Shown here piece by piece: positions 2,589-43,300 of a stretch of DNA of 64,000 nucleotides; position 1 is the stretch's first letter; each line of letters opens with the position of its first letter. The stretch comes from Candidatus Omnitrophota bacterium (GTDB lineage: Bacteria; Omnitrophota; Gorgyraeia; Gygaellales; Profunditerraquicolaceae). The stretch covers positions 230,900-294,899 of the forward strand of contig JBAZKL010000004.1 in NCBI GenBank assembly GCA_041650835.1, given 5' to 3'. The translations under genes and the position numbers were made by a program. The notes beneath the pieces are model-generated. The model was not told where the DNA came from, made no database searches, and saw only the letters and a list, made by a program, of their open reading frames with translations.

Positions 2589-2700
2589 CGCAGAAGGCGA
2601 AACACCAACGCGATTCCTTTTAAGCGTTGGGTGTAGCAGAAGGACTGCCTGCCGGTAGGCAGGCGAAACACCCGCGCAATACCTATAAGCGCGGGGTGCT
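2589..2700. repeat. Two tandem GC-rich REP-like palindromic units (gcagaaRg ... cacc-N5-loop-N5'-gggtg) in the 5' leader of bamA. The second unit carries the ctgcctgccggtaggcagg hairpin.
   Basis: Hairpins caccaacgc/gcgttgggtg and cacccgcgc/gcgcggggtg. The same unit recurs at about 4165 and at 10540-10780. Confidence 0.55.
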
Positions 2701-2803
2701 ATCGTAAAAACCAACACACATTTTTGTAACCAGTAACCTTCATTCCTAATTTTATTTAATATATCACAATCTTTTCAAAAAGCAAACTATTTTCTTTAAC
2801 GGG

Positions 2804-4141
2804 TTATTCCCCCTGAATGATATTCTCGAACTTGGTATATTCCTTGACAAAGGTAAGCTTCATCGACCCGACCGGCCCGTTCCTCTGCTTGGCGATAATG
2901 ACCTCCGCGATACCTTGATTGTCCGGCGTCGGATTATAATACTCCTCCCTCAAAAGCAGGACCACGACATCAGCGTCCTGTTCGATAGCGCCGGATTCCC
3001 GAAGGTCGGAAAGCTGCGGGCGATGGTCCGTGCGTGACTCAACGGCGCGCGACAACTGGCTGATAGCGATAAGCGGGACATTGAGTTCGCGGGCCAGCGC
3101 TTTTAAGGAACGGGAGATCTCCGAGATCTCAGCCTGGCGGTTATCGACGCCTAATTTGCCGCGCATTAATTGCAGGTAATCCAGAACGATAAGCTGTATA
3201 TTATACTGCGATTTTAAACGCCTGGCTTTCGCGCGCAGTTCCATTACGGAGATAGCGGGAGTATCGTCGATAAAGATAGGGGCCTCCGACAATTTACCCG
3301 CGGCCGCGGTCAGGCGCGGCCAGTCAGACGTAGAAAGATACCCGGTACGCACTTTATGCGCGTCCACTTTGGCGTGAGAACAAAGCATCCTCTGAGCCAG
3401 TTGCTCCTTAGACATTTCCAAGCTGAAGAACGCGATCGGGACTTTTTCCACGATACCCGCGTATTCAGCCATATTTAAAGCCAAGGCGCTCTTACCCATG
3501 GAAGGCCTCCCGGCAACAATGATAAGGTCGGAAGGCTGCAGCCCCGCGGTCTTCATGTCGAAATCGATAAATCCCGTCGGGATACCGGTAACATGCGCTT
3601 TTTTCTGGTAGAGCCTGTCAATGGTCTCAATACTGTCTTTAATGATCTCTTTGAGGTGAAGGCAGGCGCCCTGAGCGCGGTGGTCCCGGACATCAAAGAT
3701 CAAAGTCTCCGCGGCATCGACCAGCTCGTCGACATTTCCTTCATTCTCAAAACACAGCGATACGATCTTTGTCGCGTTATTGATCAGGCCGCGCAGCGTG
3801 TTCTTTTCCTTAACGATGGAAACATAGTGGCTGATATTCGCGGCGGTTGGGACAGAGTTCACTAATTCCGTCAAGAAACTGACGCCGCCGACCGCATCCA
3901 GCAAGCCCAAACGCTTTAATTCGTCGGTCAAAGTGATCAGGTCGACTGCCCGGTTCTCGCCGTAGAGGTCGGATATGACCCCGAATATCTTCCGGTGCGA
4001 ATCTTTGTAGAACGAGATCTTGTCTAAAGACTCAACAGCGACGGCAATGGCCTCTTCATCTATAAGCATAGAGCCCAAAACAGCCATTTCAGCCTCAAGG
4101 TTTTGTGGAGGGAGTTTATCAGAAGATAATTCAGTAGGCAT
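2804..4141 (-). CDS. dnaB: Replicative DNA helicase DnaB. The likely start is MPTELSSDK; the ORF track extends it to 4189.
   Basis: N-terminal DnaB domain (NLEAEMAVLGSML), Walker A GRPSMGKS and a RecA-like C-terminus. Confidence 0.85.
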   Translation of the reverse strand: MPTELSSDKLPPQNLEAEMAVLGSMLIDEEAIAVAVESLDKISFYKDSHRKIFGVISDLYGENRAVDLITLTDELKRLGLLDAVGGVSFLTELVNSVPTAANISHYVSIVKEKNTLRGLINNATKIVSLCFENEGNVDELVDAAETLIFDVRDHRAQGACLHLKEIIKDSIETIDRLYQKKAHVTGIPTGFIDFDMKTAGLQPSDLIIVAGRPSMGKSALALNMAEYAGIVEKVPIAFFSLEMSKEQLAQRMLCSHAKVDAHKVRTGYLSTSDWPRLTAAAGKLSEAPIFIDDTPAISVMELRAKARRLKSQYNIQLIVLDYLQLMRGKLGVDNRQAEISEISRSLKALARELNVPLIAISQLSRAVESRTDHRPQLSDLRESGAIEQDADVVVLLLREEYYNPTPDNQGIAEVIIAKQRNGPVGSMKLTFVKEYTKFENIIQGE

Positions 4142-4161
4142 GCTCTCGGTACTCGGCTGCG

Positions 4162-4200
4162 CAGAAAGCGCGCACCGGCGCAATTCCAATTAGCGCCGGG
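4162..4200. repeat. Single REP-like palindromic unit (caccggcgc-aattccaatta-gcgccgggtg) in the dnaB leader.
   Basis: Inverted repeat seen directly; same family as 2589-2700 and 10540-10780. Confidence 0.5.
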
Positions 4201-4219
4201 TGTGCTCGGTTATCGGTTA

Positions 4220-8111: not shown

Positions 8112-9377
8112 TTATGTGTCGCGTGTTTTTGCCGCCAGGGGCACAGCAGGAACGCCGACAACAGTCGCTCCCGCGGCAACATGATGATGCCGCCTCACCA
8201 CCGACCCGGCACCCGTCTTAGCGGCCTTCCCGATCCTGACAGGCGCGATCAACACCGTGTCGGAACCAATAAAGGCCCCGTCCTCTATAACGGTAATATT
8301 TTTATGCGTTCCGTCGTAGTTGGCGGTAACCGTGCCTGCTCCGATATTAACGCGCTTTCCGATACGGCTGTCGCCGATATAAGAAAAATGCTTTGCTAAA
8401 GTTTTTGATCCTAATGCAGAACGGGAAATTTCCAGGAAGTTTCCAACGGTAACTTCATTATTTAAAACCGTGCCTTCGCGCAAACGGGCAAAAGGGCCTA
8501 CATTGCAGGATTTCCCAATTTTAACATTTTTTTCAATAACTGTAAAGGGATAAATTACGCTATCCCGGCCTATTTTCACTCCATAACTGATAAAAGCCGA
8601 ATCAGGGTCGATAATGCTGACCCCCTCTTTCATGAATTCATCATTGATGCGCCGCTGCATGATCTTTTGAGCCTTAGACAATTCTAAGCGGGAATTAACC
8701 CCCATAGTTTCAAGGACATCAGGCGTTTCCGCGCTTTCAACCAGGTCCCCCTGTTGATAAAGGATCCCGATCACATCAGTCAGATAATATTCTTTCTTAC
8801 GGTTGTTCGGTTTAACTTTCTTTAAGGCGCCGATCAGCTTTTTCTTTTCAAAACAAATGATCCCGGTATTGATCTCTTTGATTTCCTTTTGGAAATCGTC
8901 CGCATCTTTTTCCTCGACGATACCGCAAATACTGCCATAAGCATCCCGGAGGATCCTGCCATAGCCGAGCGGTTTTTCGACCTTCGCCGTCAGCATGGTC
9001 GCCGCCGCCCCTGAACCTTCGTGGCGCTTGACCAATTTCGCGATCGTCTGCTTCTGTAATAACGGGACATCGCCGTAAAGGACGATAACCGAACCGCTGA
9101 AACTCTTTAAAAGCGGCAACGCCTCTTTCATGGCATCGGCGGTGCCCAGAAGTTTCTTTTGGACCACGGTTTGCGAAGCATTCCCGACAAAAGCCCTGAC
9201 CAGGTCCGCTTTAAACCCCAGGACAGTAACCGTTCTTTTCATTTTCAGGCTCGCGACCAGGTCCAGGACATACCCAAGCATCGGCCTGCCGCAGACGGCA
9301 TGCAAGACCTTCGGCAGGTCGGACTTCATCCTGGTGCCTTTTCCTGCCGCCAAAATTATTGCCGCGATGTTCTTCAT
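8112..9377 (-). CDS. glmU: Bifunctional GlmU (UDP-GlcNAc pyrophosphorylase / GlcN-1-P acetyltransferase).
   Basis: N-terminal LAAGKGTRM nucleotidyltransferase motif and a C-terminal left-handed beta-helix of hexapeptide repeats. Confidence 0.85.
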   Translation of the reverse strand: MKNIAAIILAAGKGTRMKSDLPKVLHAVCGRPMLGYVLDLVASLKMKRTVTVLGFKADLVRAFVGNASQTVVQKKLLGTADAMKEALPLLKSFSGSVIVLYGDVPLLQKQTIAKLVKRHEGSGAAATMLTAKVEKPLGYGRILRDAYGSICGIVEEKDADDFQKEIKEINTGIICFEKKKLIGALKKVKPNNRKKEYYLTDVIGILYQQGDLVESAETPDVLETMGVNSRLELSKAQKIMQRRINDEFMKEGVSIIDPDSAFISYGVKIGRDSVIYPFTVIEKNVKIGKSCNVGPFARLREGTVLNNEVTVGNFLEISRSALGSKTLAKHFSYIGDSRIGKRVNIGAGTVTANYDGTHKNITVIEDGAFIGSDTVLIAPVRIGKAAKTGAGSVVRRHHHVAAGATVVGVPAVPLAAKTRDT

Positions 9378-9410
9378 AAACGTTCTAATAATTATTTTTA
9401 TACGTACGTT

Positions 9411-9554
9411 TAAAGTTAAAAGTTTAAAGTTTAAATATCAAAGGAAGGTTAAAATTCAAAGGTTTAATTTTAAAATTTCCTACCTGCCGGTAGGCAGGGA
9501 CCTTAGACCTTTGATCTTCCTTTGTTATTTAGCCTTGAATCTTTATACTTTACT
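9411..9554. mobile_element. MITE-like AT-rich palindromic intergenic element, copy A, with a GC hairpin core.
   Basis: Terminal inverted repeats ...aaatatcaaaggaagg / ccttcctttgttattt... around the core cctacctgccggtaggcagg. About 80% identical to copy F. Confidence 0.7.
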
Positions 9555-9644
9555 ATAACTTGTTCCTGCGAAGCCGCACCGAGGTTTTACATTATTAACG
9601 GCGAAGCAGAACGATGCCAGACGTAGTCCGCTTTCTGAATACGA

Positions 9645-9908
9645 TTACAATTGTTTTAATAAAACTTTGTCGCCTTTTATCAATGCCAACTTCTTTTTTC
9701 TTGTCCAGCCTTTTATTTGTGCTTCGCGCTTTAATGCTGAAGGCTTGTCTAAGTATTGTTCATAAAATAGTATCTTTTCTACTCCAAATGATTTTGTAAA
9801 ATGACCGCCCCTGCCTGAGGCATGTTCTTTAAAGCGACGCTGAAGATCATCTGTAATGCCGGCATATAAATCGCTGTTCTTACATTTGAGGATATAAACA
9901 AACCATAT
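9645..9908 (-). CDS. GIY-YIG nuclease family protein (UPF0213/YhbQ-like). There is no canonical in-frame start; the best candidate is ATA with an upstream AAGGA.
   Basis: Minus-strand frame reads IWFVYILKCKNSDLYAGITDDLQRRFKEH...IKGWTRKKK. It is missed by the ORF track because it has no ATG/GTG/TTG start. Confidence 0.6.
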   Translation of the reverse strand: MWFVYILKCKNSDLYAGITDDLQRRFKEHASGRGGHFTKSFGVEKILFYEQYLDKPSALKREAQIKGWTRKKKLALIKGDKVLLKQL

Positions 9909-10022
9909 GGTGTCCTTCGACTCGTTCGTCGCTATCGCTCCTTACTCGCTCAGGATACTTCTCCTCCCTCGCCTTGCCTGGGCTTGTACTGAGCGACCGA
10001 GCGAAGCGAGGGAGTCGAAGTA

Positions 10023-10093
10023 CTGGGACGCATGGATTCGAACCATGATAGCGAGACCCAAATTCTCGTGTCCTACCATTGGACGACATCCCA
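10023..10093 (-). tRNA. tRNA-Gln (anticodon UUG).
   Basis: Cloverleaf folded by hand: acceptor TGGGATG/CGTCCCA, anticodon stem CGAGA/TCTCG with loop ATTTGGG, T-arm CATGG-TTCGAAT-CCATG, discriminator G. Confidence 0.75.
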
Positions 10094-10107
10094 AAATACA
10101 TTATAAT

Positions 10108-10521
10108 CTAAAGATCGGCATCTCCATACTCGCCGGGCTTACCGGTCTTTTTTTCGATTTCATACGCTTCCAGGACTTTCTTCTGTAAATATTCCCGGAA
10201 AACCTGTGTTATCGGATGAGCGACATCCTTATGCTCCGACTGCGCGAACGCGCCTGCCTCCGGGCCCACGGGACGGACTGATACGCTTAACTGCCCGCCG
10301 CACTGATTACAGAATTTTGAACGCGCTTCATTCTTAAATCCGCACTTCGGACAAGACTGTTTGATCTTACGCGAAGGCATAGCGATGAACAATTCGCTGG
10401 TACCCTGAATAACCTTGATATTCCTCACCACAAACGCGTCGTCAAAGGTAACCGTAGCGTATGCTTTCAGCTTTTTGTCGGGTGACTCTCGTAAGAAGAT
10501 TTTAACTTCAGTTATGTCCAT
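10108..10521 (-). CDS. spoVG: SpoVG-domain protein with a C-terminal zinc ribbon. The start is at MDITEVKIFL.
   Basis: SpoVG core (TVTFDDAFVVRNIKVIQGTSELFIAMPSRK) followed by CPKCG...CNQCGG. Confidence 0.75.
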   Translation of the reverse strand: MDITEVKIFLRESPDKKLKAYATVTFDDAFVVRNIKVIQGTSELFIAMPSRKIKQSCPKCGFKNEARSKFCNQCGGQLSVSVRPVGPEAGAFAQSEHKDVAHPITQVFREYLQKKVLEAYEIEKKTGKPGEYGDADL

Positions 10522-10542
10522 AGCAGCACCCCTTTCACAGAA

Positions 10543-10785
10543 AGTGAAACACCAACGCAATTCTGCCGCAGAAAGCGGCATACCGGCGCAATTCCAATCT
10601 GCGCCGGGTGCAAGCAGAAAGCCGCGTACCGGCGCAATACCGCCGCAACAAGCGGCGTACCCAGCCACACCTATTAGGCTGGGTGCGATCAGCGCCGGGT
10701 ACAGTCAGAAAGCCTGCCGTCAGGCAGGTTGCACACCCAGCCACGCCAATGAGGATAGGTGCCGATAAGCGCGGAGTGTTGTCAC
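10543..10785. repeat. Array of about five or six GC-rich REP-like palindromic units in the spoVG 5' leader, downstream of the ispE stop.
   Basis: Repeated gcagaaagcg ... cacc-N5-(aattccaat / aatacc / acacctatta loops)-N5'-gggtg units. One unit contains cctgccgtcaggcagg. Confidence 0.55.
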
Positions 10786-11715
10786 TTAAATCGTCCTTGT
10801 TACCGCCACAAATAAAGACTTATTTTCTTTCTTAAGCTGCCGGGAAAAAGACCGGGCTTCCTGTTGAGAAGGAACAAAAGCAAAAATCGACGGCCCGCTC
10901 CCAGACATTAAACTTGACCGCAACCCTAAGAAAACAAATCTTTTTTTCAGAAGTTTTACTTCAGGATAGACTTTTTCCGTAACAAGTTCCAAGCTGTTAA
11001 ACAAGGCTTTTTCGATCAAAGTAAGGTCTTTTTTCTTTAATATCGAACATAATATTGTAACATTTTGTTTAGGAATTGTCAACCTCAGAAGGCCTCCGGA
11101 ATACTCATCCCATTTCTTATAAATAAGCGGCGTGGAAACATGTAACGGCAATACGGCTAAAACATGCCACAGCCGGATAGCTTGAAGCGAATGTACGGGA
11201 CGGATCTTCTCTCCCCTGCCGCTTCCTAAAGCGAAAGGGGCGTCATATATAAAAAAAGGCACATCACTGCCGATCTTTTTGGCTAAAGAAACTAATTTAT
11301 TCCTCGTAAGCCCAAGGCCCCAAAGGCGATCCAGCCCTAAGAGAACTCCCGCAGCATCGCTTGAACCGCCGCCCATCCCGGCGCCTACAGGGATACGCTT
11401 GATGATCTTGATCCTTACCCCTTTATCGAGCTTCAAGCTCTCCTGCAACAATTGAGCGCTCTTATACGCGAGATTGGAGCTATCCTTAGGGACACCCGGA
11501 TGATCAGAAATGATCTCGATCTTTTTACCCGGCAAAGAAGATAACTTGAGCGTGTCATGCAGGTCAACGCGCTCAAAAAGAGTTTTTATCTCATGATAAC
11601 CATCGGCGCGCTTCTTAATAACCTCGAGGAACAGGTTGAGCTTAGCGTAACAACTGACTTCCACGCCTCGGGAACCAAGCAGTTTCAACGCTGAATGTAA
11701 TTGCCCCATGGACAT
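10786..11715 (-). CDS. ispE: 4-diphosphocytidyl-2-C-methyl-D-erythritol kinase.
   Basis: GHMP kinase motif PVGAGMGGGSSDAAG; N-terminal AKLNLFLEV. Confidence 0.85.
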   Translation of the reverse strand: MSMGQLHSALKLLGSRGVEVSCYAKLNLFLEVIKKRADGYHEIKTLFERVDLHDTLKLSSLPGKKIEIISDHPGVPKDSSNLAYKSAQLLQESLKLDKGVRIKIIKRIPVGAGMGGGSSDAAGVLLGLDRLWGLGLTRNKLVSLAKKIGSDVPFFIYDAPFALGSGRGEKIRPVHSLQAIRLWHVLAVLPLHVSTPLIYKKWDEYSGGLLRLTIPKQNVTILCSILKKKDLTLIEKALFNSLELVTEKVYPEVKLLKKRFVFLGLRSSLMSGSGPSIFAFVPSQQEARSFSRQLKKENKSLFVAVTRTI

Positions 11716-11724
11716 ATGATTATA

Positions 11725-12654
11725 TTAAGGAGAAACTATTCTTAAAACCGCTTTTTCTATATCGCCACTGGTAAGATTGTATTCTTTCATAAGTTCAGCC
11801 GGCTGGCCGGATTGGCCGAACCTGTTTCGTACTCCAACGCGGATAACTTTGGTAGGATGATTCTCAGCCACAACTTCGTCAACACTGGAAGCCAAGCCGC
11901 CGATAATGGTATGCTCTTCACAGATAACAATCCCTTTAGTCTGGCGGGCCGCGGCGAGGACCGTTTCGGTATCCAGGGGCCTGATAGTATGCATATTGAT
12001 CAAACGGGCGGAAATATTTTTCTTCTTCAGGCTCTCCACGGCAGCTAATGCCTCCTGCACCATGATCCCGCAGGCGATGATCGCGACATCGTTACCCTGG
12101 GTTAAAACTTGAGCCTTACCTAATTGGAATTTCCCTTTATTCTCAATAGTCACGACTTTCGGCCTTCCCAGGCGGACATAAAAGGGGCCTTTGGTATGAG
12201 CGGCGGCGATCACCGCTTCGCGCGTCTGAGGGCCGTCGCAAGGAGCCACGATAGTCATATTAGGGATCACGCGCATAAGCGCGATATCCTCCAACGCCTG
12301 ATGGCTGGCCCCGTCGGGTCCGACGCTCACGCCCGCGTGCGTCGCGACGATATTAATATTAAAATTATTATAGGCGACACTGTTCCTGATCTGGTCCCAT
12401 GCCCTGCCGGTAGCGAATATCGCGAAGGTTGAAGCAAAAACGATCTTCCCGCAGCTTGCCAGGCCGCTGGCAACAGCCATCATATTCTGTTCAGCAACCC
12501 CCATATTGAAAAAACGCTCCGGGTATTCTTTGGCAAATAAACCGGTACGCGTGGAACTGGATAGATCAGAATCGAGGACAATAATATCCTTATTCTCTTT
12601 ACCCAACTCGATGAGTGTCTGGCCGTAAACGTCTCTTTGGTATAATTGTTCCAT
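11725..12654 (-). CDS. Transketolase, C-terminal subunit of a split enzyme.
   Basis: Pyrimidine-binding and C-terminal transketolase domains (FNMGVAEQNMM...). Confidence 0.85.
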   Translation of the reverse strand: MEQLYQRDVYGQTLIELGKENKDIIVLDSDLSSSTRTGLFAKEYPERFFNMGVAEQNMMAVASGLASCGKIVFASTFAIFATGRAWDQIRNSVAYNNFNINIVATHAGVSVGPDGASHQALEDIALMRVIPNMTIVAPCDGPQTREAVIAAAHTKGPFYVRLGRPKVVTIENKGKFQLGKAQVLTQGNDVAIIACGIMVQEALAAVESLKKKNISARLINMHTIRPLDTETVLAAARQTKGIVICEEHTIIGGLASSVDEVVAENHPTKVIRVGVRNRFGQSGQPAELMKEYNLTSGDIEKAVLRIVSP

Positions 12655-12655
12655 T

Positions 12656-13477
12656 TTACTCTAACTCTCTCAACGCCTGCTCGGTTTCTTCTTTGGTAGG
12701 AGTGCGGCCGTGGAAATCAACCACATGCTCCATAAAAGAAACCCCCTTGCCTTTAATCGTATGGGCAATGATAATGGACGGCTTTCCTTTGACCGACCGC
12801 GCTTCATCATATGCCTCTAAAACCTGTTTCATATCATGGCCGTTTATTTCAACGGTATGCCATCCGAATGCCTGCCATTTCGCGATTATCGGCTCAAGAT
12901 TCATAACGTCTTTTGTTTTACCGTCGATTTGATACCCGTTATAGTCCAGGATGCCGCAGATATTATCGCAGCGATAGTGAGCCGCAGCCATAGCCGCTTC
13001 CCAAATATTGCCTTCCTGTATTTCTCCATCCCCCATTAAACAATACACCCGGTAACCTTTCTTATCGATCTTTGCCGCAAGGCTCATGCCGACCGCGATG
13101 GACAACCCCTGCCCGAGCGAACCGGAGGCGACATTGATCCCGGGGGTGCGCCGGTCAGGATGCCCCTGCAGTAAAGAACCGAATTGCCGCAAGGTCATAA
13201 GTTTTTCAAGAGGGAAATACCCGGACTCAGCTAAAACAGCATACAACAAAGGACAGCAATGCCCTTTCGACAAATGGAAACGGTCGTTCTCCGCGCTTAA
13301 AGGGTTTTTAGGGTCATGGCGCATTACCGCGAAATATAACGCGGTGATCAAATCAGCCGCCGAAAGGCTCCCTCCCGGATGGCCGGAACCCGCTTTAGCA
13401 AGCATGGTAATGATCAATTTACGGATATGCTTGGCTTTGACTTCTAATTCTTTAACCTTCGTATCGGAATAAGACAT
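12656..13477 (-). CDS. Transketolase, N-terminal thiamine-diphosphate-binding subunit.
   Basis: GSGHPGGSLS...GDGE...N TPP-binding motifs. Confidence 0.85.
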   Translation of the reverse strand: MSYSDTKVKELEVKAKHIRKLIITMLAKAGSGHPGGSLSAADLITALYFAVMRHDPKNPLSAENDRFHLSKGHCCPLLYAVLAESGYFPLEKLMTLRQFGSLLQGHPDRRTPGINVASGSLGQGLSIAVGMSLAAKIDKKGYRVYCLMGDGEIQEGNIWEAAMAAAHYRCDNICGILDYNGYQIDGKTKDVMNLEPIIAKWQAFGWHTVEINGHDMKQVLEAYDEARSVKGKPSIIIAHTIKGKGVSFMEHVVDFHGRTPTKEETEQALRELE

Positions 13478-13512
13478 CTCAATAATTATCTAAAACCGGG
13501 CTCTCGCTTATA

Positions 13513-14520
13513 TTATCGCACTACCGGCGCGGCCCCGTTTTTAGTTACTTCCTGATTTAATCTATCCAATTTCTGCTTAACCTGGTCCTGCTTTGAATCT
13601 ATGATCAACGATCTTTCCCAGCTTGCTATAGCGTTCGGGCGGTCGTTAAGCTTTAAATACGCGTCACCTAAATGGTCGAAAATAACATGGTCATCCAATA
13701 ACGCGCTGGCCTTTTTTAATTCCTGAACAGCGTCGCTGAATTTACCTTGTTTAAAATAAAGCCAGCCCAAACTATCGATATACGCTCCATTTTCAGGCTC
13801 AAGGGACAATGCCTTCCTTATCAAGCTTTCAGCGGTATCAAAATCCTTGTTTTCTTCAACATAAAGATACCCGAGATAATTCAACGCTTCGGCATAATCG
13901 GGGCGTAATTCGATCGCTTTTTTGAGCTCCACTATGGTCTGGTCCCGGTTTTTCAGCTCATCATAAACATTCGCCAGATAAAAATGGGCTTCGCTGTCGG
14001 AAGGCGACAGGTCAAGGATCAAGCGATACGTATTCTCAGCGTCTTTGAATTTCTTCTGACGCAGATAAACGATCCCTAAACTTTTATAAACATCGATATT
14101 CTGAGGTTCGACCTTGGAGGCATTCTGAAGCGCAAGCTCATATTCCGTGGTAGCCAGGTCAGGCTTGCCTTGAGAAAAATAAAGAAGCGCCAAAACCGCA
14201 TGCGGCTCTATGGCTTCCGCGTCATATTTAACGGCAAGGTTTAATTCAAGCGTAGCCCGGGGAGCATCATTCTGCCTTAAGTAACAAAGCGCCAGGTTCA
14301 GGTGGATCAAAGCATTCCTGGGGTCTAATTCCAAGGCTTTTTTATACTCGGTGACCGCTTCTTCGGTATCGCCTGACTGTTCATGCATAGAAGCCATGAT
14401 ATAATGCGTCAGGGTCAGCGATAAGCGTTTATCTAACGCGAGAACGCTTGTCGAAGCGCACAGCGTTAGTGAAAGGCAACACAAAATTAAAGAAACCCGT
14501 CTTTTTAGCTTAGGAAGCAT
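13513..14520 (-). CDS. Secreted tetratricopeptide-repeat protein.
   Basis: Signal peptide followed by about eight TPR-like repeats (AxxxYxxALxLDP pattern). Confidence 0.7.
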   Translation of the reverse strand: MLPKLKRRVSLILCCLSLTLCASTSVLALDKRLSLTLTHYIMASMHEQSGDTEEAVTEYKKALELDPRNALIHLNLALCYLRQNDAPRATLELNLAVKYDAEAIEPHAVLALLYFSQGKPDLATTEYELALQNASKVEPQNIDVYKSLGIVYLRQKKFKDAENTYRLILDLSPSDSEAHFYLANVYDELKNRDQTIVELKKAIELRPDYAEALNYLGYLYVEENKDFDTAESLIRKALSLEPENGAYIDSLGWLYFKQGKFSDAVQELKKASALLDDHVIFDHLGDAYLKLNDRPNAIASWERSLIIDSKQDQVKQKLDRLNQEVTKNGAAPVVR

Positions 14521-14699
14521 ATCGAGAACACTTCACCGGCACACCAGTGACAGCGTATCGCAGCAATATCTCAATGAATTTACATGATCCCTCCAGGTAA
14601 AAACCCGGATCTTTGAGGGACATTTATCTTATCGAGAACAAGCTGATAAGGCAAAGTACTGCCTTATCAGCTTGAACACAGGCTTTTTCGACCTACGAA

Positions 14700-14801
14700 T
14701 TAGCTCCAGTTTCTCTTCTTCAAATGACGCAACTTTCGACGCATCTTTTTTCTTTTATGCGTCTTGATCTTCTGTCTTTTTCTTTTCTTACCGCACGGCA
14801 T
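14700..14801 (-). CDS. Unannotated 33-aa Lys/Arg-rich small protein, MPCGKKRKRQKIKTHKRKKMRRKLRHLKKRNWS, with a candidate resemblance to ribosomal protein bS22.
   Basis: Strong GGAGGA Shine-Dalgarno 4 nt before the ATG. Its composition and the KKR-KR...HKRK pattern resemble mycobacterial bS22. It falls below the ORF-track length cutoff. Confidence 0.4.
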   Translation of the reverse strand: MPCGKKRKRQKIKTHKRKKMRRKLRHLKKRNWS

Positions 14802-14825
14802 TACTTCCTCCTCGATAAAACGATC

Positions 14826-15707
14826 TTAATAAATCACCTTGTTCAACGGATATTCGATGATCCCCTCGGCTCCGGCTTTCTTTAATTCAGGGATCAATTG
14901 CCTGACAATTTTTTCATCGATCACCGTCTCCAGCGCGAACCACCCCGTTTCAGAAAGCCCTGAAACAGTAGGGTTTTTTAAGGCCGGAACAACGGCGATG
15001 ACTTTTTGCAGGTCTTTCTTCCTGACATTCATCTTCAAACCGACTTTTTCTTCGGCAGCGATCGCCCCTTTCAATAAAACAGAGATCTGCTCCATTTTTT
15101 CTTTCTTCCAGGCATCCTTGACCGCGGCCTTATTGGCGATGAATTGCGTCGTCGATTCACAGACAGTGGCGATCTCCACCAGTTTATTCGCCCGCAGGCT
15201 CCTGCCGGTTTCCGTCAATTCCACGATAGCGTCAACAAGCCCCGAGCTTACCTTGACCTCAGTCGCTCCCCAGCTGAATTCCACATCGACCTTGACCTTA
15301 TGTTTGCTAAAAAAATCCCTGGTAACACCGACAAGCTCGGTAGCGATACGTTTATTATGCAGGTCCCTGACCGTTTTCATCCCTGAATTCTCCGGGACTG
15401 CCAGGACCCAACGGACCTTGCTTAAGCTCTGCTTGGCGTACATTAAGTCGGTCACCCGGTAAACATCGGACTTATTTTCCAGGATCCAGTCATTTCCGGT
15501 AACTCCGCAATCCAAAACCCCCTCCTGGACATACCGGGACATCTCCTGCGCCCGTAAAAGGATCGCTTCTATTTCGGGGTCATCGACCGAAGGGAAATAC
15601 GAACGCTCCGACGATAAAGACACGTTAAAACCGGCCTTCTTGAACATCCGGAACGTTGACTCCTGAAGGCTTCCCTTAGGGAGCCCCAGCTTTAAGATTT
15701 TTTTCAT
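14826..15707 (-). CDS. hisG: ATP phosphoribosyltransferase HisG, long form with a C-terminal regulatory domain. The start is at [14 protein letters not shown].
   Basis: HisG catalytic motifs and the C-terminal HisG_C domain; the ORF-track TTG-start extension is rejected. Confidence 0.85.
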
Positions 15708-15924
15708 TGCACCATACCCTCCAGCCACCTGCGTGGAAATACTCAATAAAAAACATCTCCGCCTCGACAAAACCTTTCGATCATTAGCGGGTCTGACAGG
15801 CAAGTTATTATACAGGGTGAGCAATAAATTGTAAAGAAAAAATTGCAAAAACTCAAATTTACCTTATAATAAAACTCTATAATAAATCTAACCTTTAATT
15901 ACCCATAGAGAGGAAGGCAGGATC

Positions 15925-17340
15925 ATGTTTAAAATGCTCCGAGACAAAAAAACCCAGAAAACTATCTGGATCGTTTTAGCGGTCATTATCGTACCGGCAT
16001 TCATTTTTTGGGGCTCCAGCAGCATAATCAAAGAGCCGGGAGAAGTAAATAATTTCTCCCTCAAGATCTTCGGCAAACGTATTTCTTACTCGGATTACCA
16101 GGACTCACTCGCGGCGGTCCGTAATCAGGCACTCATCCAATTCGGGGACAGCTTTGAGCAAATGCAGAAATTCCTGAACCTGGAAAGCCAGGCGGTCCAA
16201 CGGCTGGTTCTCGTCGCGGAAGCGCGCAAGCGTAAGATCAAGGTCAGCGACAAAGAAGTCGTCGATTTTATCCAGGCATTCGCGCCTTTCCAAAATAAAG
16301 GCCAGTTCGACAATAGGGCATACGCGTATATATTGCAATATGTATTCCGCACCCAGCCCCGGCTATTTGAAGAACAAACCAGGCAGAACCTGATGATAGC
16401 GAAGCTTTATGAAACCATTACCAAGGACGCCTCCGTTACCGAGCAGGAGGTCAAAGACGCTTACGCAAAAGAAAACGAGCAGATCAGCGTAAGTTATATT
16501 GCCAGCCTGTACGCGGACTCAAGCAAGGACGCCGTTACCAGCGATGAAGAACTTAAAGATTACTTTACTAAAAATTCCCTTTCTTTTAAACAACCCCTGT
16601 CGTTTAACGCCGTCTACCTCGCCCTGGATAACGAAACCCAGCAAAACAGCATTACCCCGCTGATCGCGAAAGAAAAAGACCTTGAAAAAGCGGCAAAAGA
16701 ATTAAACCTGAGCGTCAAAGAAACCGGGTTATTCAGCCAGGTTGACCCTGTCCCGGGGATCGGCTGGAGCCCGCAGATCTCCGCGATCATCTCAAAGCTT
16801 GACGTCGGGCAGATCTCAAGCGTCATCCCTTTTGACAAGAAATTCTACGTATTCCAGCTCAAAGAGCGTCGTGACCCTTATATACCCGATTTTGAAGCTA
16901 TAAAAGAAAAGGTAAAAGACGCCGTGGCCAGGAACAAGGCAAAGGATATCGCGAAAAGAAAAGCCGACAGCTGCTTTAAAATACTCCAGGATGCCGCGAA
17001 GATCGGCCTTAAAACGATCAATTTCGAGGCAATCGCCAAAGACGCGGGGCTTAAAACAGGGACAACCGCCCCTTTTAAATTCGGCAGCTATATCGAGAAT
17101 ATCGGCGCCTCCGACGAATTCTTTACCGCGGCACGCTCTTTAAAAGATGACGAGTTCAGCGCGGTGATCGACTCCCCTTCCGGCTACTTCATCATTAAGA
17201 CAAAATCGAGGGTGCCGGTTGATGAAGCGAAGTTTAAGGCGGAAAAAGAGGAATTCACGCAAAAGCTTTTATCCGAAAAGAAGCAGAACGAATTCTCAAA
17301 ATTCGCCGAAGAATTAATGAAGAAAATACAGGCAGGCTAA
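15925..17340 (+). CDS. ppiD: PpiD/SurA-like periplasmic chaperone (N-terminal transmembrane anchor, SurA-N-like and parvulin-like regions).
   Basis: An N-terminal TM helix followed by a long periplasmic domain with PpiD-like architecture. It is the only confident plus-strand gene in the window. Confidence 0.65.
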   Translation: MFKMLRDKKTQKTIWIVLAVIIVPAFIFWGSSSIIKEPGEVNNFSLKIFGKRISYSDYQDSLAAVRNQALIQFGDSFEQMQKFLNLESQAVQRLVLVAEARKRKIKVSDKEVVDFIQAFAPFQNKGQFDNRAYAYILQYVFRTQPRLFEEQTRQNLMIAKLYETITKDASVTEQEVKDAYAKENEQISVSYIASLYADSSKDAVTSDEELKDYFTKNSLSFKQPLSFNAVYLALDNETQQNSITPLIAKEKDLEKAAKELNLSVKETGLFSQVDPVPGIGWSPQISAIISKLDVGQISSVIPFDKKFYVFQLKERRDPYIPDFEAIKEKVKDAVARNKAKDIAKRKADSCFKILQDAAKIGLKTINFEAIAKDAGLKTGTTAPFKFGSYIENIGASDEFFTAARSLKDDEFSAVIDSPSGYFIIKTKSRVPVDEAKFKAEKEEFTQKLLSEKKQNEFSKFAEELMKKIQAG

Positions 17341-17378
17341 ACCGTAAGAAAAAAACGGGCACGCCGCTTTCGTTAAAA

Positions 17379-17435
17379 GAAAAGCCCCGTTCTTATTATC
17401 GGATCACGATAGAGAACGGGGCTTTTCTTTTAAAA
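17379..17435. terminator. Bidirectional rho-independent terminator between the convergent ppiD (+) and ferredoxin/por (-) genes.
   Basis: A near-perfect 14-15 bp inverted repeat (gaaaagccccgttct / agaacggggcttttc) flanked by A-tract and T-tract. Confidence 0.65.
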
Positions 17436-17439
17436 CGTA

Positions 17440-17622
17440 TTAACTTACTTTTATAGAATTGACCGGACACTGATCTGCTATCTCGGCGAGATTATGCGTT
17501 GGGCATGATTGAGCTTTCACATGAGCGATCCCGTCGCCCTGGACCTCGAAAACTTCAGGACAAGCCTGTTCACACAAACCGCACCCAACACAGGTAGAAG
17601 CATCAACGCTGACTTTTGCCAT
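17440..17622 (-). CDS. 4Fe-4S ferredoxin.
   Basis: CVGCGLCEQACP...CPTHNLAEIADQCP. Confidence 0.7.
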   Translation of the reverse strand: MAKVSVDASTCVGCGLCEQACPEVFEVQGDGIAHVKAQSCPTHNLAEIADQCPVNSIKVS

Positions 17623-17656
17623 TTTATTACCCCCTCTTGTAATGAATATAACCTTC

Positions 17657-18547
17657 TTAAGCTGTCGGAGCAGGAGTTTCTATCTTAAGGTTATACTTTT
17701 TAATATTATTATCGGCGACTTCCTGGATCTTCTTGATCAGCTCAACATTGTTCAACAAATGCTTAAACCTTCCCTGCACCTTCAAGTATTCTTCCACCGG
17801 AAGGCATTTGATCTGCCTTTTAGAGACCAGAACGCCATTTTCATATTCAATGACCGGATATAAACCGGTCTCAACCGCTAATTTCGCGATATCAAAAGTC
17901 CCTTTAGATTCATGGCGCCAGCCTAACGGGCAGGGGACATGGATCTGGATATATTTCGGCCCTTTAATGGATAATGCTTTTTTTACCTTGCGCTGAATGT
18001 CCTGGGGATAGCCCACGGTCGCGGTAGCAACATACGGTATCCCGTGCGCCAGAGTGATCTCAGGCATCGGTTTCTTAGGGCGCAGGTTCCCGCATGAAAT
18101 ACTGCCGGCAGGGCTGGTCGAGGTGTTCGCCTCAAAAGGCGTCAGGCCGCTGCGCTGAACGCCGGTATTCATATATGCTTCGTTATCATAACAAACATAC
18201 AAAATATCATGGCCGCGCTCCAACATTCCTGAAAGCGCCTGCAGGCCGATATCTGCTGTCCCGCCGTCACCGCCCTGGGCAATAACGTTGATCCCTTCTT
18301 TCTTTCCCATGAAGCGTAATGCCGCCTCTACTCCTGAAGCGACCGCCGCGCAGTTCTCAAACAAAGAATGTATAAACGGCACCTGCCATGCCGACTCCGG
18401 ATATTTGGTCGAGAATACTTCAAGACATCCGGTGTTATTCGCCACGATTGTATTCGGGCCGCTGGCATCGACGACCAAACGCGCCGCGATTGACTGTCCG
18501 CAACCGGAACATGCGGTATGACCACTGACAAATAAATGTTTACTCAT
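17657..18547 (-). CDS. porB: 2-oxoacid (pyruvate):ferredoxin oxidoreductase, beta subunit (TPP-binding).
   Basis: GDGG...N TPP motif and N-terminal Cys residues. Confidence 0.85.
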   Translation of the reverse strand: MSKHLFVSGHTACSGCGQSIAARLVVDASGPNTIVANNTGCLEVFSTKYPESAWQVPFIHSLFENCAAVASGVEAALRFMGKKEGINVIAQGGDGGTADIGLQALSGMLERGHDILYVCYDNEAYMNTGVQRSGLTPFEANTSTSPAGSISCGNLRPKKPMPEITLAHGIPYVATATVGYPQDIQRKVKKALSIKGPKYIQIHVPCPLGWRHESKGTFDIAKLAVETGLYPVIEYENGVLVSKRQIKCLPVEEYLKVQGRFKHLLNNVELIKKIQEVADNNIKKYNLKIETPAPTA

Positions 18548-19721: not shown

Positions 19722-19723
19722 AT

Positions 19724-25681: not shown

Positions 25682-25697
25682 AGGAAAGATACAATAA

Positions 25698-25842: not shown

Positions 25843-25851
25843 GTCTTCCAA

Positions 25852-27139: not shown

Positions 27140-27160
27140 AATCTAAGCCCTCTACGATTA

Positions 27161-27300: not shown

Positions 27301-27319
27301 TTATTATATCACTCTTTTG

Positions 27320-28039: not shown

Positions 28040-28077
28040 ATACCGCCTCGTTTGATATAAAGCTTAAAAAATGCGGA

Positions 28078-28218
28078 AAAGTTTAAAGATTAAATTTTAA
28101 ATAACAAAGGAAACTCAAAGAATAAAGGTTAAATTTTAAAATTTCCTACCTGCCGGTAGGCAGGAACCTTAAGCCTTTAATCTTCCTTTGTTATTTAGAC
28201 TTTAAACTTTATCATTAA
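28078..28218. mobile_element. MITE-like element, copy F. Core is cctacctgccggtaggcagg.
   Basis: Closest relative of copy A. Confidence 0.7.
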
Positions 28219-28301
28219 CCGTAGTTAATTATGAGCTTTTGTTATATATTAATACGCAATTACACGTTTTCTTCTAGATTATCATTCTTTTATTATTAAG
28301 G

Positions 28302-29120
28302 TTAATACCGGGGAATAAGGAAAATATGGCCGATGATAGCGTCCGCCCAAAACATCGACAAGATCGCTGCCAGGGCTAAAAACGGACCGTAGGGAATGGT
28401 ATGATCTTTTTTGACCAGGAGGTTTAAGACGCCGATCACGGCGCCAAAGAAAGGAGCAAGGAAAAATGTTATCACCGCTTTTTCCCAGCCGAGAAAAGCC
28501 CCGATCATTGCCAGGAGTTTGACGTCACCGCCGCCCATGGATTCTGTTTCTCCCTGGATAGGGCCCTTCTTGAGTAATTTAAAATAAACCAGGTCGAAGA
28601 GGACCCCGGTCAAATAGATGATACCCCCTCCTATGATTATTCCGAGGAAGGACTGCAGGGCAGGATTGAAATCATAGCGTAACGGCTCCAGATGCACCCC
28701 GCGCGCGGCATTAATAAGGAACCCGACAACCAGGCCGCCCACGGATATCTCATCGGGAATGATCCTATGCTGGATATCCACGAATGTCGCGACGATCAAT
28801 CCCGCCACAAAAATAATATAGTAAACCGATTTAAAGCTGAAGCCGTAAAGGTTATAAAACCATAAAAAGCACAAGCCCGTCAAAAGCTCAACGATCCAAT
28901 ACCGCGGCGAGATACTTTTGCGGCAAAACCGGCATTTCCCCCCCAAAATAAGATAACTTATCAAGGGGACATTATCAAACCAGGCAATAGGCTTTTTACA
29001 ATTCGGGCAGAATGATCCCGGAACAACGACCGATTGCTCAAGCGGCATCCGGTAAATGCAGACATTCAAGAAACTTCCGACGATAGCCCCAAAAAGAAAG
29101 GTAAAAACCTGTTCGATCAT
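28302..29120 (-). CDS. pilD: Type IV prepilin leader peptidase / N-methyltransferase (A24 family).
   Basis: CPNC...CRFC zinc knuckle, polytopic membrane protein with conserved Asp residues. Confidence 0.8.
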   Translation of the reverse strand: MIEQVFTFLFGAIVGSFLNVCIYRMPLEQSVVVPGSFCPNCKKPIAWFDNVPLISYLILGGKCRFCRKSISPRYWIVELLTGLCFLWFYNLYGFSFKSVYYIIFVAGLIVATFVDIQHRIIPDEISVGGLVVGFLINAARGVHLEPLRYDFNPALQSFLGIIIGGGIIYLTGVLFDLVYFKLLKKGPIQGETESMGGGDVKLLAMIGAFLGWEKAVITFFLAPFFGAVIGVLNLLVKKDHTIPYGPFLALAAILSMFWADAIIGHIFLIPRY

Positions 29121-32173: not shown

Positions 32174-32290
32174 TGATAAAGGCTAAAGACTAAATAACAA
32201 AAGAAGGTTAAAGTCTCAAGTCTAAATTTTAAAGTTTAACCTTTATTCTTTGAATTTCCTTTGTTATTTAAACTTTAATTTTTAGACTTT
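32174..32290. mobile_element. MITE-like element, copy G; a short variant lacking the GC core.
   Basis: Shares ...aaataacaaaagaaggttaaag / ttctttgaatttcctttgttatttaaacttta termini with copy C. Confidence 0.6.
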
Positions 32291-32486
32291 CCGTCAACCT
32301 AATTTTATGAATTTACAGGGGATTACTTCTTCATCCAGGGCATCATTAATGAGCAGACAACTTACGGAGCCTCATTTTTTACGCTTCCTACGACGTAAGT
32401 TGTAGGCCGTCAGGCCGTCTGCGAATTATCCCGCAGCGCGCGATGCGGCATTTCGAAGAAATGCGCGAGCGTTTACGCCAGGGAAG

Positions 32487-41442: not shown

Positions 41443-41470
41443 GGAAAAAAAACATTACCCAACGATCCGT

Positions 41471-43162
41471 CTATAATCCATCGACCTGCATATCGCGCGG
41501 ATGCTCGACGATATAATTCAATATTATTTCTTTCTTGGCTTTCGGCTCTAATTCCAACTCCCAGAGCCAGACGCCTTTTCTATCCTGCCAGTTCTTTTCT
41601 TTCGGCTCTAAGGATACCTGCCCGAGCTTGACCTTGATGCGGTCATCTTCCGAGACAGGCATCGCATCAAATAATTTCACTTTTATCTTTTTCGACTTAT
41701 AACTCTCGACGGTCAGCTTATATTTGAACGCGGTCTTACGCGTCGGCGAAGGGATCCCGCCGATAATGGTCTCATCAACCTTCTTCTCGACCTGCTCGCG
41801 CTTTACCTTAACATTCTCATCCACGCCCAAATACAGGTCGAATTCTTCCTGCGGAGCGGTGTTGCCCAAATTGGAAATCCCCACAAAATCACCGTCTAAA
41901 AAAATATTCACCCTGCCGGGGAGAAGCTGCAGGTCTTTGGCGTTGGTGACCCGGCTGCCCAGATAAGCCGCCGGATTAATACGCGGATAGGTGGAATATT
42001 CAAAATCGGCCTTTAACATCTGAGTTGAAACCGCCAGTTTATGGTCTGAACCGTCGGACTTGATACTGGCTTTCCGGGGCAGCGTATAAACTATTGCCAC
42101 TCCTTTTTCTTCCGCGACGGCATAAGCGGCTTCAGCCTTCTTTTTATCCGACCCCGCGACCCCGCCGCTGTTTTCAGCTAATTCCTCATCGCTTTCAAAG
42201 GCACGGGATTGCATCGAAGGTGCCACCGCATCCATCATTTTGGAGCGCCTTTCAAAATGCACCTGCAACGGCCGCAATATCCAGGGGCTTACATACGGGA
42301 GGTTTCCGCCTATTGCCGGCCTTGCCGTTGATAAGGCAATATCGACATCCTGCCAGTCTTCACCCGAACTCTGCCTAAGGATCCCGAACGACACTAACTC
42401 TACTTCCGAGCCCTGAAAGTTCGCCCGGGCATCGTAGATCGGCTGCCAGGAAGCGCCCCCCACCAGGTACGACGCGTTTAAAATGACCTCTCCCTGCTTT
42501 AAGACCTGCAGGTCGACGACGATCGAACGCTTCAATTTCTGCAGTGGCCCTGAGATCTGGACAAGCTCTCTCTTTAAAGCATCACCCCTCAAAGAAAGAT
42601 CCCGCAGCTTGATCTCACAATCCATAACAAAAGAAAAGTTTTCTTTTAACTTTATATCCAGGAACTTCAAGGTATCTTCCAAATCCTTGGCCGCAGGCAT
42701 TTGAGTGACCAGCTCTTTCGGTAATTGCTGATGGGAGAAGAAGCGCAATGAATCCAGGAAACTTTTTTCTTCCTGGAAGACACTTTTCAGGTCAACTAAA
42801 GCCCGCTGCTCATCTTCCAGCTTCTGGATCTCATCCTGCAGTTGTTTTATCTTTTCGGAAGGGGTTTCTTTCAGGAATTCTTTCTTGAGCTGACAGCCTA
42901 ATATCCTGACATCGGCCTTGCCCTCTTCGGTGACCCGCAAGGAATTATCGTCGACGTTGGGAATAATGTTGGGGAATACGACCTTGTATTCACCGGGATC
43001 TAAGGAAAGCTGCGCCTGACGGGTCAACAAGGCCTGTCCCGGATAGATCATCACCCGGGTGATCCGGGAATCCGCCTCAATTTCAGCGGCAAAACCATAG
43101 CCTGCAAAGACAGATACGAGTAAAGCCAGTACAGCCCAAGAAACAACGCGCTCTTTCCTCAT
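41471..43162 (-). CDS. Secreted coiled-coil protein of the DUF4139/DUF4140 (MuiA-like) family.
   Basis: Signal peptide, a central coiled coil and a C-terminal beta-rich domain characteristic of DUF4139. Confidence 0.55.
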   Translation of the reverse strand: MRKERVVSWAVLALLVSVFAGYGFAAEIEADSRITRVMIYPGQALLTRQAQLSLDPGEYKVVFPNIIPNVDDNSLRVTEEGKADVRILGCQLKKEFLKETPSEKIKQLQDEIQKLEDEQRALVDLKSVFQEEKSFLDSLRFFSHQQLPKELVTQMPAAKDLEDTLKFLDIKLKENFSFVMDCEIKLRDLSLRGDALKRELVQISGPLQKLKRSIVVDLQVLKQGEVILNASYLVGGASWQPIYDARANFQGSEVELVSFGILRQSSGEDWQDVDIALSTARPAIGGNLPYVSPWILRPLQVHFERRSKMMDAVAPSMQSRAFESDEELAENSGGVAGSDKKKAEAAYAVAEEKGVAIVYTLPRKASIKSDGSDHKLAVSTQMLKADFEYSTYPRINPAAYLGSRVTNAKDLQLLPGRVNIFLDGDFVGISNLGNTAPQEEFDLYLGVDENVKVKREQVEKKVDETIIGGIPSPTRKTAFKYKLTVESYKSKKIKVKLFDAMPVSEDDRIKVKLGQVSLEPKEKNWQDRKGVWLWELELEPKAKKEIILNYIVEHPRDMQVDGL

Positions 43163-43189
43163 ACCACCTCCCCTTTACATGTCACAGGT

Positions 43190-43300
43190 TGCAAGACACC
43201 TGACTGCCGTCAGGCAGGCATGACACAAGTATCAAAACATAAAAAGTAACTACCTTGTATTATCTTTTACTTGTGTCTTGTGTCTTGTGTCAATTCAATA
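43190..43300. repeat. Composite intergenic repeat: the ctgactgccgtcaggcagg hairpin, a gacacaagt...acttgtgtc stem-loop and (ttgtgtc)x3 tandem repeats.
   Basis: Read directly between ahcY and the DUF4139 gene. Combines the GC hairpin module with the acacaag word family. Confidence 0.5.

Follow-up and report, generated by a model that had tools for sequence, protein, structure and literature searches.

Why does one short GC-rich hairpin recur inside otherwise unrelated repeats of a single stretch of bacterial DNA? The question arises in 64,000 nucleotides (nt) from Candidatus Omnitrophota bacterium (GenBank assembly GCA_041650835.1, contig JBAZKL010000004.1, positions 230,900 to 294,899), hereafter the window. 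Here the hairpin lies within AT-rich palindromic elements of the miniature inverted-repeat transposable element (MITE) type, within arrays resembling repetitive extragenic palindromic (REP) sequences, and in one other intergenic region. We call the shared unit K; its general form is (CCTR)2CC/GG(YAGG)2, a near-palindrome with a 4-nt periodicity. We found that K is the same sequence in many phyla, set in unrelated flanks, and that its regular home is a cassette composed of a decoy tRNA part, K, a gene for a small GIY-YIG protein, and an intact tRNA gene. We give an even chance to the reading that the K copies of the window are solo copies of the cis-element of this cassette, belonging to a cross-phylum family, and that one of them was amplified by the MITE.

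Is the hairpin a genuine recurrent unit? The sequence CTGCCNNNNGGCAGG occurs at 8 distinct sites (15 strand-matches) in the window, whereas 100 dinucleotide-preserving shuffles of the window yielded 0.03 on average and never more than 1; the recurrence noted in the original prediction is therefore real. That prediction described a module of 15 to 19 nt, which captures the shared stem-loop; the conserved unit is longer, at 20 nt, although 16-nt short forms exist, one of them in the window. Among the MITE copies, the consensus of K is CCT[A/G]CCTGCCGG[T/C]AGGCAGG, and CCTACCTGCCGG[T/C]AGGCAGG is present at four MITE sites, two of them on the minus strand. K folds in three registers, either as a full palindrome or as one of two interleaved 6-bp hairpins, with a predicted single-strand DNA stability of -5.5 to -8 kcal/mol. 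All K sites of the window are intergenic, amid housekeeping genes that lie uniformly on the minus strand, and both orientations of K relative to these genes are found:

2644-2663, plus strand: K copy ACTGCCTGCCGGTAGGCAGG, inside unit 2 of the REP-like array that lies upstream of bamA
9479-9498, plus strand: K copy CCTACCTGCCGGTAGGCAGG, within MITE copy 9412-9553
10713-10728, plus strand: K in a short form of 16 nt, CCTGCCGTCAGGCAGG, in one unit of the REP-like array that lies upstream of spoVG
21758-21777, minus strand: K copy reading CCTACCTGCCGGCAGGCAGG on that strand, within MITE copy 21706-21838
25753-25772, minus strand: K copy reading CCTACCTGCCGGTAGGCAGG on that strand, within MITE copy 25700-25841
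27226-27245, plus strand: K copy CCTGCCTGCCGGTAGGCAGG, the form used for the cross-phylum scan, within MITE copy 27159-27300
28145-28164, plus strand: K copy CCTACCTGCCGGTAGGCAGG, within MITE copy 28078-28219
43199-43218, plus strand: K variant CCTGACTGCCGTCAGGCAGG, between ahcY and a DUF4139 gene, adjoining a hairpin of ACACAAG words

The hairpins that had been placed inside a REP-like unit of the bamA leader and beside acacaag words near 43200-43218 are thus both K, at 2644-2663 and 43199-43218. The one in the spoVG leader is also present, at 10713-10728 and not at about 10705-10722. The region around the K at 43199 is identical in an independent metagenome contig (L001), and the variant CCTGACTGCCGTCAGGCAGG also occurs 4 times in viral contigs and in one GIY-YIG cassette (L306). 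Likewise, 16-nt forms like that at 10713 are found in three cassettes (L285, L292, L333).

How does K sit in its hosts? The AT-rich element, about 140 nt long, qualifies as a MITE in being non-coding and present in seven copies with 71-88% identity in the arms, which are palindromic and made of TTTAAAG-type words. Only five copies had been counted previously, all with the hairpin at their center. In fact, five of the seven carry K and two lack it, and K is located off the symmetry center, immediately 3′ of the central AAATTTTAAAATTT, with the same position and orientation in all five. The copies without K are as follows:

24532-24648, no strand assigned: MITE copy in which the alignment gap at the K position is blurred by an extra AACCTTT word
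32176-32292, no strand assigned: MITE copy with a clean 20-nt alignment gap at the K position, between AAAATTT and RACCTT

Aligned with these copies, the K-bearing ones show no target duplication. The arms of the K-less copies are 83-87% identical to those of the K-bearing copies 28078-28219 and 25700-25841 (85-86% in the case of 24532-24648), while the remaining K-bearing copies match them at only 71-79%. Because the K-less copies nest among the K-bearing ones, we conclude that gain or loss of K took place repeatedly at a single MITE position.

The same kind of comparison can be made within the REP-like arrays that carry K:

2581-2700, no strand assigned: two-unit REP-like array lying upstream of the start codon of bamA (ATG at 2567)
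10528-10780, no strand assigned: REP-like array of several nested units, between ispE and spoVG

In the bamA array, unit 1 has GCAGAAGG directly followed by CGAAACACC, and unit 2 has the same two sequences separated by 20 nt, again with no target duplication. In the spoVG array, sister units read AGAAAG, CGGCA, TACC in succession, and the K-bearing unit reads AGAAAG, 16 nt, TTGCA, CACC, so that the 16-nt form occupies a spot that is empty in the sister units. K is a discrete insert of fixed length that enters without target duplication. It is not itself a MITE, being only 20 nt long and leaving no duplication when its insertions are compared with empty paralogous sites. Nor did we find a longer parent element with half-K ends; the few isolated half sites followed no pattern. 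As for the arrays themselves (2581-2700, 4165-4205, and 10528-10780), each alternates a 6-bp hairpin having an AGAAR loop with a second hairpin, CACCnnGCGC-AATWCCWWTWR-GCGCnnGGGTG, and each lies directly upstream of a minus-strand start codon, namely those of bamA (ATG 2567), dnaB (approximately 4141), and spoVG (approximately 10522).

Several known kinds of hairpins do not account for these copies. A termination factor had been put forward as a possible ligand of the hairpin, which the sites do not bear out: only 1 of the 6 K sites in the region 9300-28400 is terminator-like (a GC stem with a direct T-run, oriented with the upstream gene), and terminator-like sites overall are not in excess over shuffles in that region. 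In a search of the window against Rfam 15, only tRNAs reached the gathering threshold, with no family for K, the MITE, or the REP-like arrays, and under permissive settings the regions 9380-10030 and 10400-10900 yielded nothing beyond chance-level hits. The hairpin CTGCC-GTATA-GGCAG of type I-F CRISPR repeats has the same 5-bp stem. We rejected the possibility that K is a CRISPR repeat, given that its copies form no array and lie 0.9 to 32 kb apart inside other repeats; no cas domains were found among the 30 open reading frames (ORFs) of the window scanned with Pfam.

Is K confined to this genome? We scanned one genome per species (596 Gb in total) with the asymmetric 19-mer CTRCCTGCCGGTAGGCAGG and found it in at least 120 genome stretches, compared with approximately 9 that, by our own calculation for 596 Gb, chance alone would give. 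The 19-mer is carried by no fewer than a dozen phylum-level groups. They include isolates of Bacteroidota (Olivibacter oleidegradans CCM 7765, Flavobacteriaceae bacterium R38, and Thermobacterium salinum), many lineages of Patescibacteria, Omnitrophota, Ignavibacteria, Planctomycetes, Thermodesulfobacteriota/Syntrophaceae, Nitrospiraceae, Chloroflexi, Acidobacteria/Terriglobia, Bdellovibrionales, Gammaproteobacteria, and Stahlbacteria. In 117 of the 120 listed matches, the base that precedes the 19-mer is C, and therefore the unit is a 20-mer; the flanks beyond it are unconstrained. Among the matches listed, most K copies are single and their flanks are unrelated between genomes, the only shared flanking sequences being other short hairpin modules. 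K lies in long open frames at 13-17% of the listed sites, compared with 53-72% of random positions. Many phyla share K as one sequence set in unrelated flanks, and the description of the hairpin as a portable module holds both for the precise 20-nt inserts, in the window and in other genomes, and for the unrelated contexts in which the same 20-mer is found across phyla. We rejected an adapter or assembly artifact as the source of this recurrence: isolate genomes contain K, it recurs in many independent studies, and the sequences beside it are imperfect and not exact fold-backs.

Such recurrence could in principle be due to convergence, with CCTG/CAGG slippage tracts turning palindromic independently or with generic stable hairpins, for example terminators, being selected. 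The 4-nt periodicity of K and its capacity to slip between three registers would accord with such an origin. Yet the same asymmetric 19-mer would have had to arise at least 120 times where approximately 9 occurrences are expected, the inserts have a fixed length of 20 nt, one site in six in the window is terminator-like, and K is specifically linked to one protein family (see below). We regard convergence as very improbable, the least probable of the explanations considered here.

The variants of K point to constraint on its hairpin. The 19-mer also occurs in 13 viral-contig stretches, and we sampled variants of K by degenerate scans of viral contigs. For CCTNNCTGCCGNNAGGCAGG, the two variable pairs were GC/GC in 42 cases (the perfect palindrome), GT/AC in 30, GC/GT in 14 (the form used in the genome scan), and GA/TC in 4 (the form at 43199). 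The pairs are complementary at 76 of the 120 viral-contig sites, compared with 1 in 16 expected by chance. When the other stem was varied, there was far less covariation (TG/CA 42, TA/CA 14, CG/CG 5, and the rest noise-like). Given these counts, both the sequence and the hairpin CCTNNC-TGCC-GNNAGG are constrained, and variants of K preserve this hairpin through compensatory changes.

K is also found inserted into itself: at four listed loci (L009, L025, L043, L079), one K is split by another between CCTGCCTGCCG and GTAGGCAGG. Significantly inverted flanks surround approximately 18% of the listed K sites and tandem-type direct flanks approximately 19%, compared with 5% of controls. We considered the idea that K always marks the tip of a local palindrome and dropped it, because gapped alignment gives inverted flanks at only about 18% of sites; in-register pairing of the flanks amounted to 5.3 of 20 positions, compared with 5.0 in controls. 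The flanks of K are often built of 7-8-nt tandem words in inverted orientation. In the window, these are the ACACAAG/CTTGTGT tandem words at 43219-43300, next to K, and the TTTAAAG words of the MITE arms; elsewhere (L009, L014, L036, L047, and L137 also), the words include GACCAGCA, GTATCAAG, and GTGAGAG/CTCTAAC.

Other short GC hairpin modules, tgtcattcccgcgaaagcgggaatc and those of the ccctctcc..ggagaggg(t)gagg type, recur beside K in unrelated genomes (L007, L016, L030, and L063, as well as L026, L039, L091, L097, L099, and L104), and there may be several cross-phylum hairpin modules, of which K is one. At L039, K and a ccctctcc hairpin lie inside a long open frame; by our reading, the sequence downstream encodes a histidine-kinase ATPase motif, and K may sometimes be tolerated inside genes.

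Which gene, if any, accompanies K? We clustered the ORFs around the 120 listed genome loci (127 K sites), and the sole family that adjoins K encodes a stand-alone GIY-YIG protein of approximately 80 amino acids. Eight such ORFs are found at seven of the 120 loci, every one within 125 nt of K, and both strong GIY-YIG matches at the viral K loci adjoin K as well. No other recurring family was identified as adjoining K in these clusters; the other recurring families include, by our reading of their sequences, sensor-kinase-like, ABC-transporter-like, permease-like, and thioredoxin-reductase-like. Two cassette proteins and the GIY-YIG frame of the window match Pfam family PF01541 with E values of 2e-17 to 6e-18. 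The best matches of the family profile are the UPF0213 structures 1ywl and 1zg2, followed by the SLX1 structure-specific endonucleases and then by the catalytic domain of I-TevI. With lengths of about 77-90 amino acids, the K-linked ORFs, whose subfamily is marked by the motif REKYLKSGxGKEFLK, amount to the catalytic domain alone, without a separate DNA-binding domain.

The original prediction had named a REP-associated tyrosine transposase (RAYT) as one example of a protein partner of the hairpin. The general idea of a specific partner is supported by the GIY-YIG family that adjoins K elsewhere; the choice of RAYT did not hold up, since no Y1_Tnp/RAYT domain was found in the 30 window ORFs scanned with Pfam, which include all those of approximately 120-260 amino acids. 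The view of K as a REP-type element served by a RAYT, a Y1 HUH transposase, draws on the facts that K is short, palindromic, mostly extragenic, and multi-copy and that one form of it contains GTAG, the tag of many REPs (PMC3733652). Around the 127 listed K sites in other genomes, however, ORF clustering gave only GIY-YIG and no transposase family. Moreover, the dominant form in cassettes and viral contigs is a perfect palindrome without GTAG, and REPs are lineage-specific, unlike K, which is identical across phyla. We consider this explanation highly unlikely, though marginally less so than convergence.

What is the arrangement of K and the GIY-YIG gene? At the GIY-YIG loci that had been selected by K, the anatomy is constant: the 5′ part of a tRNA gene, a decoy, is broken by exactly 20 nt of K and is followed by a short spacer, the GIY-YIG ORF, and an intact copy of the same tRNA. 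We examined an independent sample of 80 metagenome loci that were picked by homology to the GIY-YIG protein alone. A strict K-family 20-mer lies 23-77 nt upstream of the protein match at 52 of these loci, and a looser pattern is found at 64. At approximately 68 of the 80, a tRNA gene on the same strand starts 0-20 nt after the ORF, and 66 of the 70 loci with a same-strand tRNA have a decoy tRNA copy with an insertion; wherever the two were compared, the downstream intact tRNA matches the decoy. Ten of the loci that fail both K patterns have a decoy with K derivatives (nested, or of 16 or 19 nt) or with other GC palindromes. The cassette is the regular home of K, and K is linked tightly and specifically to it.

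The position of K in the decoy is nearly fixed. For 45 of the 51 K copies upstream of a tRNA, the insertion is precise relative to the intact tRNA, and 35 of these 45 are the perfect palindrome. In 27 of the 45, K follows tRNA nt 20-23, between GGTA or GATA and GAGC, where the D-loop meets the 3′ D-stem. Another 11 insertions follow nt 14-15, and all of these except one are in tRNA-Leu. The duplicated part of the tRNA mostly ends at nt 29-42. Ten tRNA types are in use, and the nearest protein relative has the same tRNA type in 42 of 62 cases, compared with 12.9 expected; therefore, lineages of the nuclease keep to one kind of tRNA gene. At three loci (L121, L278, L282), two tandem cassettes, each with its decoy, K, and GIY-YIG gene, precede one intact tRNA, as would be expected from unequal exchange or repeated homing. 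Some decoys (L069, L166, L256, L299, L309, L334) bear several distinct hairpin inserts, in the D-arm, anticodon arm, and T-arm, and some K copies in this set bear a further insert at their own center. A tblastn search of PLSDB plasmids and the genomes of cultured phages (E ≤ 1e-8) gave no relative of the cassette protein. Among uncultured bacteria the cassette seems common, and collections of cultured phages and plasmids seem to lack it.

K could also be read in terms of gene regulation. K would then act mainly as an operator of a GIY-YIG dimer (autorepression) or, at the RNA level, as a hairpin in the 5′ untranslated region that shields the mRNA or stops the decoy tRNA half from folding, and its solo copies would have spread by MITE hitch-hiking and gene conversion only, having no mobility of their own. 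The position of K in the cassette, always between the promoter side of the tRNA and the ORF and 23-77 nt upstream of the latter, fits such a role, as does the identity of the K sequence while the protein diverges to approximately 50% identity. The asymmetric forms are mostly oriented so that the sense strand has G.T (G.U) rather than A.C (about 9 versus 2 by our count). There is also precedent in I-TevI, an autorepressor that acts at an operator resembling its homing site. Regulation does not explain the fixed D-arm insertion point across ten tRNA types, nor does it explain K within K and the precise 20-nt inserts in unrelated hairpins in both orientations; in the window, K occurs in both orientations, whereas the genes are uniformly on the minus strand. 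We think a mainly regulatory role improbable.

We rate just as low the possibility that solo K copies are inert scars, left by abortive homing, by cassette excision, or by fill-in of breaks, with no ongoing mobility or function. The window would then hold one old scar that was multiplied by the MITE plus three more scars. That most K copies are single and lack shared flanks among the listed matches, that K has the same position and orientation in the five MITE copies that carry it, and that degraded and nested derivatives of K are common all accord with scars. On the other hand, the K-less MITE copies nest among the K-bearing ones, which requires repeated gain or loss. Over time scars should degrade, but more than a dozen phyla share an identical 20-mer, and its variants retain complementarity.

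We return to the reading that the K copies of the window are solo copies of the cassette's cis-element. Under it, a single K insertion would have established a line in the AT-rich MITE, which then multiplied, and the remaining three window copies would be separate insertions, two in REP-like hairpin units and one in another intergenic region. We infer this origin of the solo copies, and with it the notion that the nuclease moves K, from the cassettes found elsewhere. That K is the cognate DNA substrate of a nuclease of the Slx1-like GIY-YIG type seems to us plausible, if slightly short of an even chance; binding or cleavage of K by the GIY-YIG protein is a candidate activity.

The fixed position at the D-loop/D-stem, K within K, and the inserts in small hairpins suggest that hairpins, extruded or single-stranded, are acted on where loop meets stem. 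By one route, the nuclease might nick at a loop/stem junction or at extruded K, and the single-strand hairpin might then be re-ligated elsewhere, a form of "peel and paste" like that of IS200/IS605 but with another enzyme. This route could account for precise gain and loss of K, as suggested by the comparison of MITE copies, because a 20-nt hairpin would be excised and re-ligated. By a second route, homing might abort once only the palindrome next to the break has been copied. K and its GIY-YIG protein would in either case be functionally akin to REP or REPIN sequences and their RAYT, with a different nuclease. The tRNA sequence would supply conserved homology in any bacterium, perhaps explaining the phylogenetic reach of K. 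In its boldest version, K would be mobile DNA of the smallest type, a hairpin-only, single-strand element of 20 nt, moved in trans by an 80-amino-acid Slx1-like GIY-YIG protein that homes in tRNA genes. Conserved tRNAs would then act as homology arms, and one 20-mer could be identical in more than a dozen phyla for that reason. We put this version forward tentatively and hold it to be possible rather than likely.

Several observations weigh against the reading that we favor. Just about 6% of the listed genome K sites adjoin a GIY-YIG gene, and most copies are solo. With K deleted, the insertion point of solo copies falls in a predicted hairpin loop in 36% of cases, compared with 26% of nearby controls, a weak difference. 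The intact tRNA of the cassette retains an uninterrupted D-arm, which is awkward if K simply marks and blocks the homing site, and a 20-bp palindrome upstream of its own gene also fits a plain operator. Furthermore, the window itself holds a GIY-YIG frame of another kind:

9645-9941, minus strand: small GIY-YIG open frame without an ATG, GTG, or TTG start, downstream of tRNA-Gln (10022-10094)

This frame lies approximately 90 nt upstream of the MITE copy with K at 9412-9553. At approximately 34% identity to the K-linked subfamily, it belongs to another subfamily; it lacks a canonical start, and no decoy tRNA-Gln lies beside it. For these three reasons, we do not assert that it serves K. Its relatives in viral contigs, found at three loci, are uninformative. 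The frame may start at ATA (9906-9908) or may be a pseudogene. The 110-nt spacer between it and tRNA-Gln contains further GC hairpins, including gtatcctgagcga...cgaaggac.

The window ORFs that have Pfam matches are housekeeping genes, and five of the 30 scanned gave no match. The gene rmuC (26144-27139) is flanked on both sides by K-bearing MITE copies (25700-25841 and 27159-27300). The RmuC family has been linked to limiting inversions at short inverted repeats; the flanking is probably a coincidence. The SpoVG domain (10108-10668, minus strand) is interrupted by a zinc-ribbon segment (Pfam DZR/Zn_Ribbon_1, ORF residues 106-128).

To what extent is K new? REP and REPIN sequences with their RAYTs (PMC3116915, PMC3733652) resemble K in being short, extragenic, palindromic, multi-copy units that are tied to one small nuclease-type gene and are also found far from it. 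The partner of K, in contrast, is a GIY-YIG domain and not a Y1 HUH transposase. K is only 20 nt long and, far from being confined to one species or genus, is identical across phyla; it does not lie on both sides of the gene but splits a decoy tRNA half upstream of it. Beside their palindromic stem, REPs have a conserved head, GTAG or CGTC (PMC3733652). The commonest form of K, CCTGCCTGCCGGCAGGCAGG, has no such head, and GTAG appears inside the T-containing form only.

The cassette shows two hallmarks of homing genes, a GIY-YIG catalytic domain and a fixed position beside a conserved host gene. Free-standing GIY-YIG homing genes such as T4 seg, with SegB in a tRNA cluster (PMC2988022, PMC13096335), likewise lie beside or inside a conserved target gene, have the tRNA region as a habitat, and are matched by the cassette in that its lineages track the type of target tRNA. 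Unlike in seg and I-TevI, the cassette ORF of approximately 80 amino acids has no separate DNA-binding domain to confer long-site specificity, and by sequence its product is closer to UPF0213 and Slx1 than to I-TevI. The cassette further includes a fixed palindrome of 20 nt and a duplicate of part of the tRNA, features with no described counterpart in seg or mob genes. Finally, in contrast to phage homing genes, its protein had no relative in the cultured phages or plasmids searched.

In behavior, K also resembles other elements. Elhai and coworkers reportedly described, in 2008, very small mobile palindromic repeats of cyanobacteria termed small dispersed repeats (SDRs), in work to which PMC3116915 refers. 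Like K, these are said to be imperfect palindromes of approximately 20 nt that insert precisely, nest in repeats and mobile elements, and encode no function. To our knowledge, SDRs have been described only in cyanobacteria, and we know of no protein partner for them; K spans many phyla and has a candidate partner, and its resemblance to SDRs is one of behavior. IS200/IS605 "peel and paste" elements and their non-autonomous palindromic derivatives share with K the lack of target duplication, hairpin-defined ends, and apparently precise loss, but K lacks both a Y1 transposase and a fixed target tetranucleotide, and it is a single 20-nt unit instead of two end hairpins. The GC clusters and double-hairpin elements of fungal mitochondria are, like K, GC-rich palindromic mini-inserts in AT-rich spacers that are nested and suspected of being mobile; they differ in being organellar and lineage-restricted, and their sequences are unrelated to K. 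We know of no linked nuclease cassette for the fungal GC clusters.

Related mitochondrial palindromic repeats have been described (PMC7218506). We found no paper that contains the exact strings of four K forms and no description of a cassette of GIY-YIG gene, tRNA, and palindrome, in a library that is incomplete, so that both results are absence of evidence only. We regard the finding as a variant of known systems, with a real chance of being more than that.

If the link between K and the GIY-YIG protein is true, many intergenic GC hairpins of environmental bacteria gain both a source and a candidate enzyme, and the spurious "LPAGRQ"-type N-terminal extensions that K adds to translations of open frames would be explained. 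The cassette is a selfish arrangement that appears new in joining a palindrome and a GIY-YIG gene to a decoy tRNA half and an intact tRNA. An 80-amino-acid nuclease with a defined 20-bp palindromic partner would make an attractive minimal protein-DNA system and possibly a tool. We suggest that the pair of K and its putative nuclease makes the spread of very short repeats, within and between genomes, directly testable.

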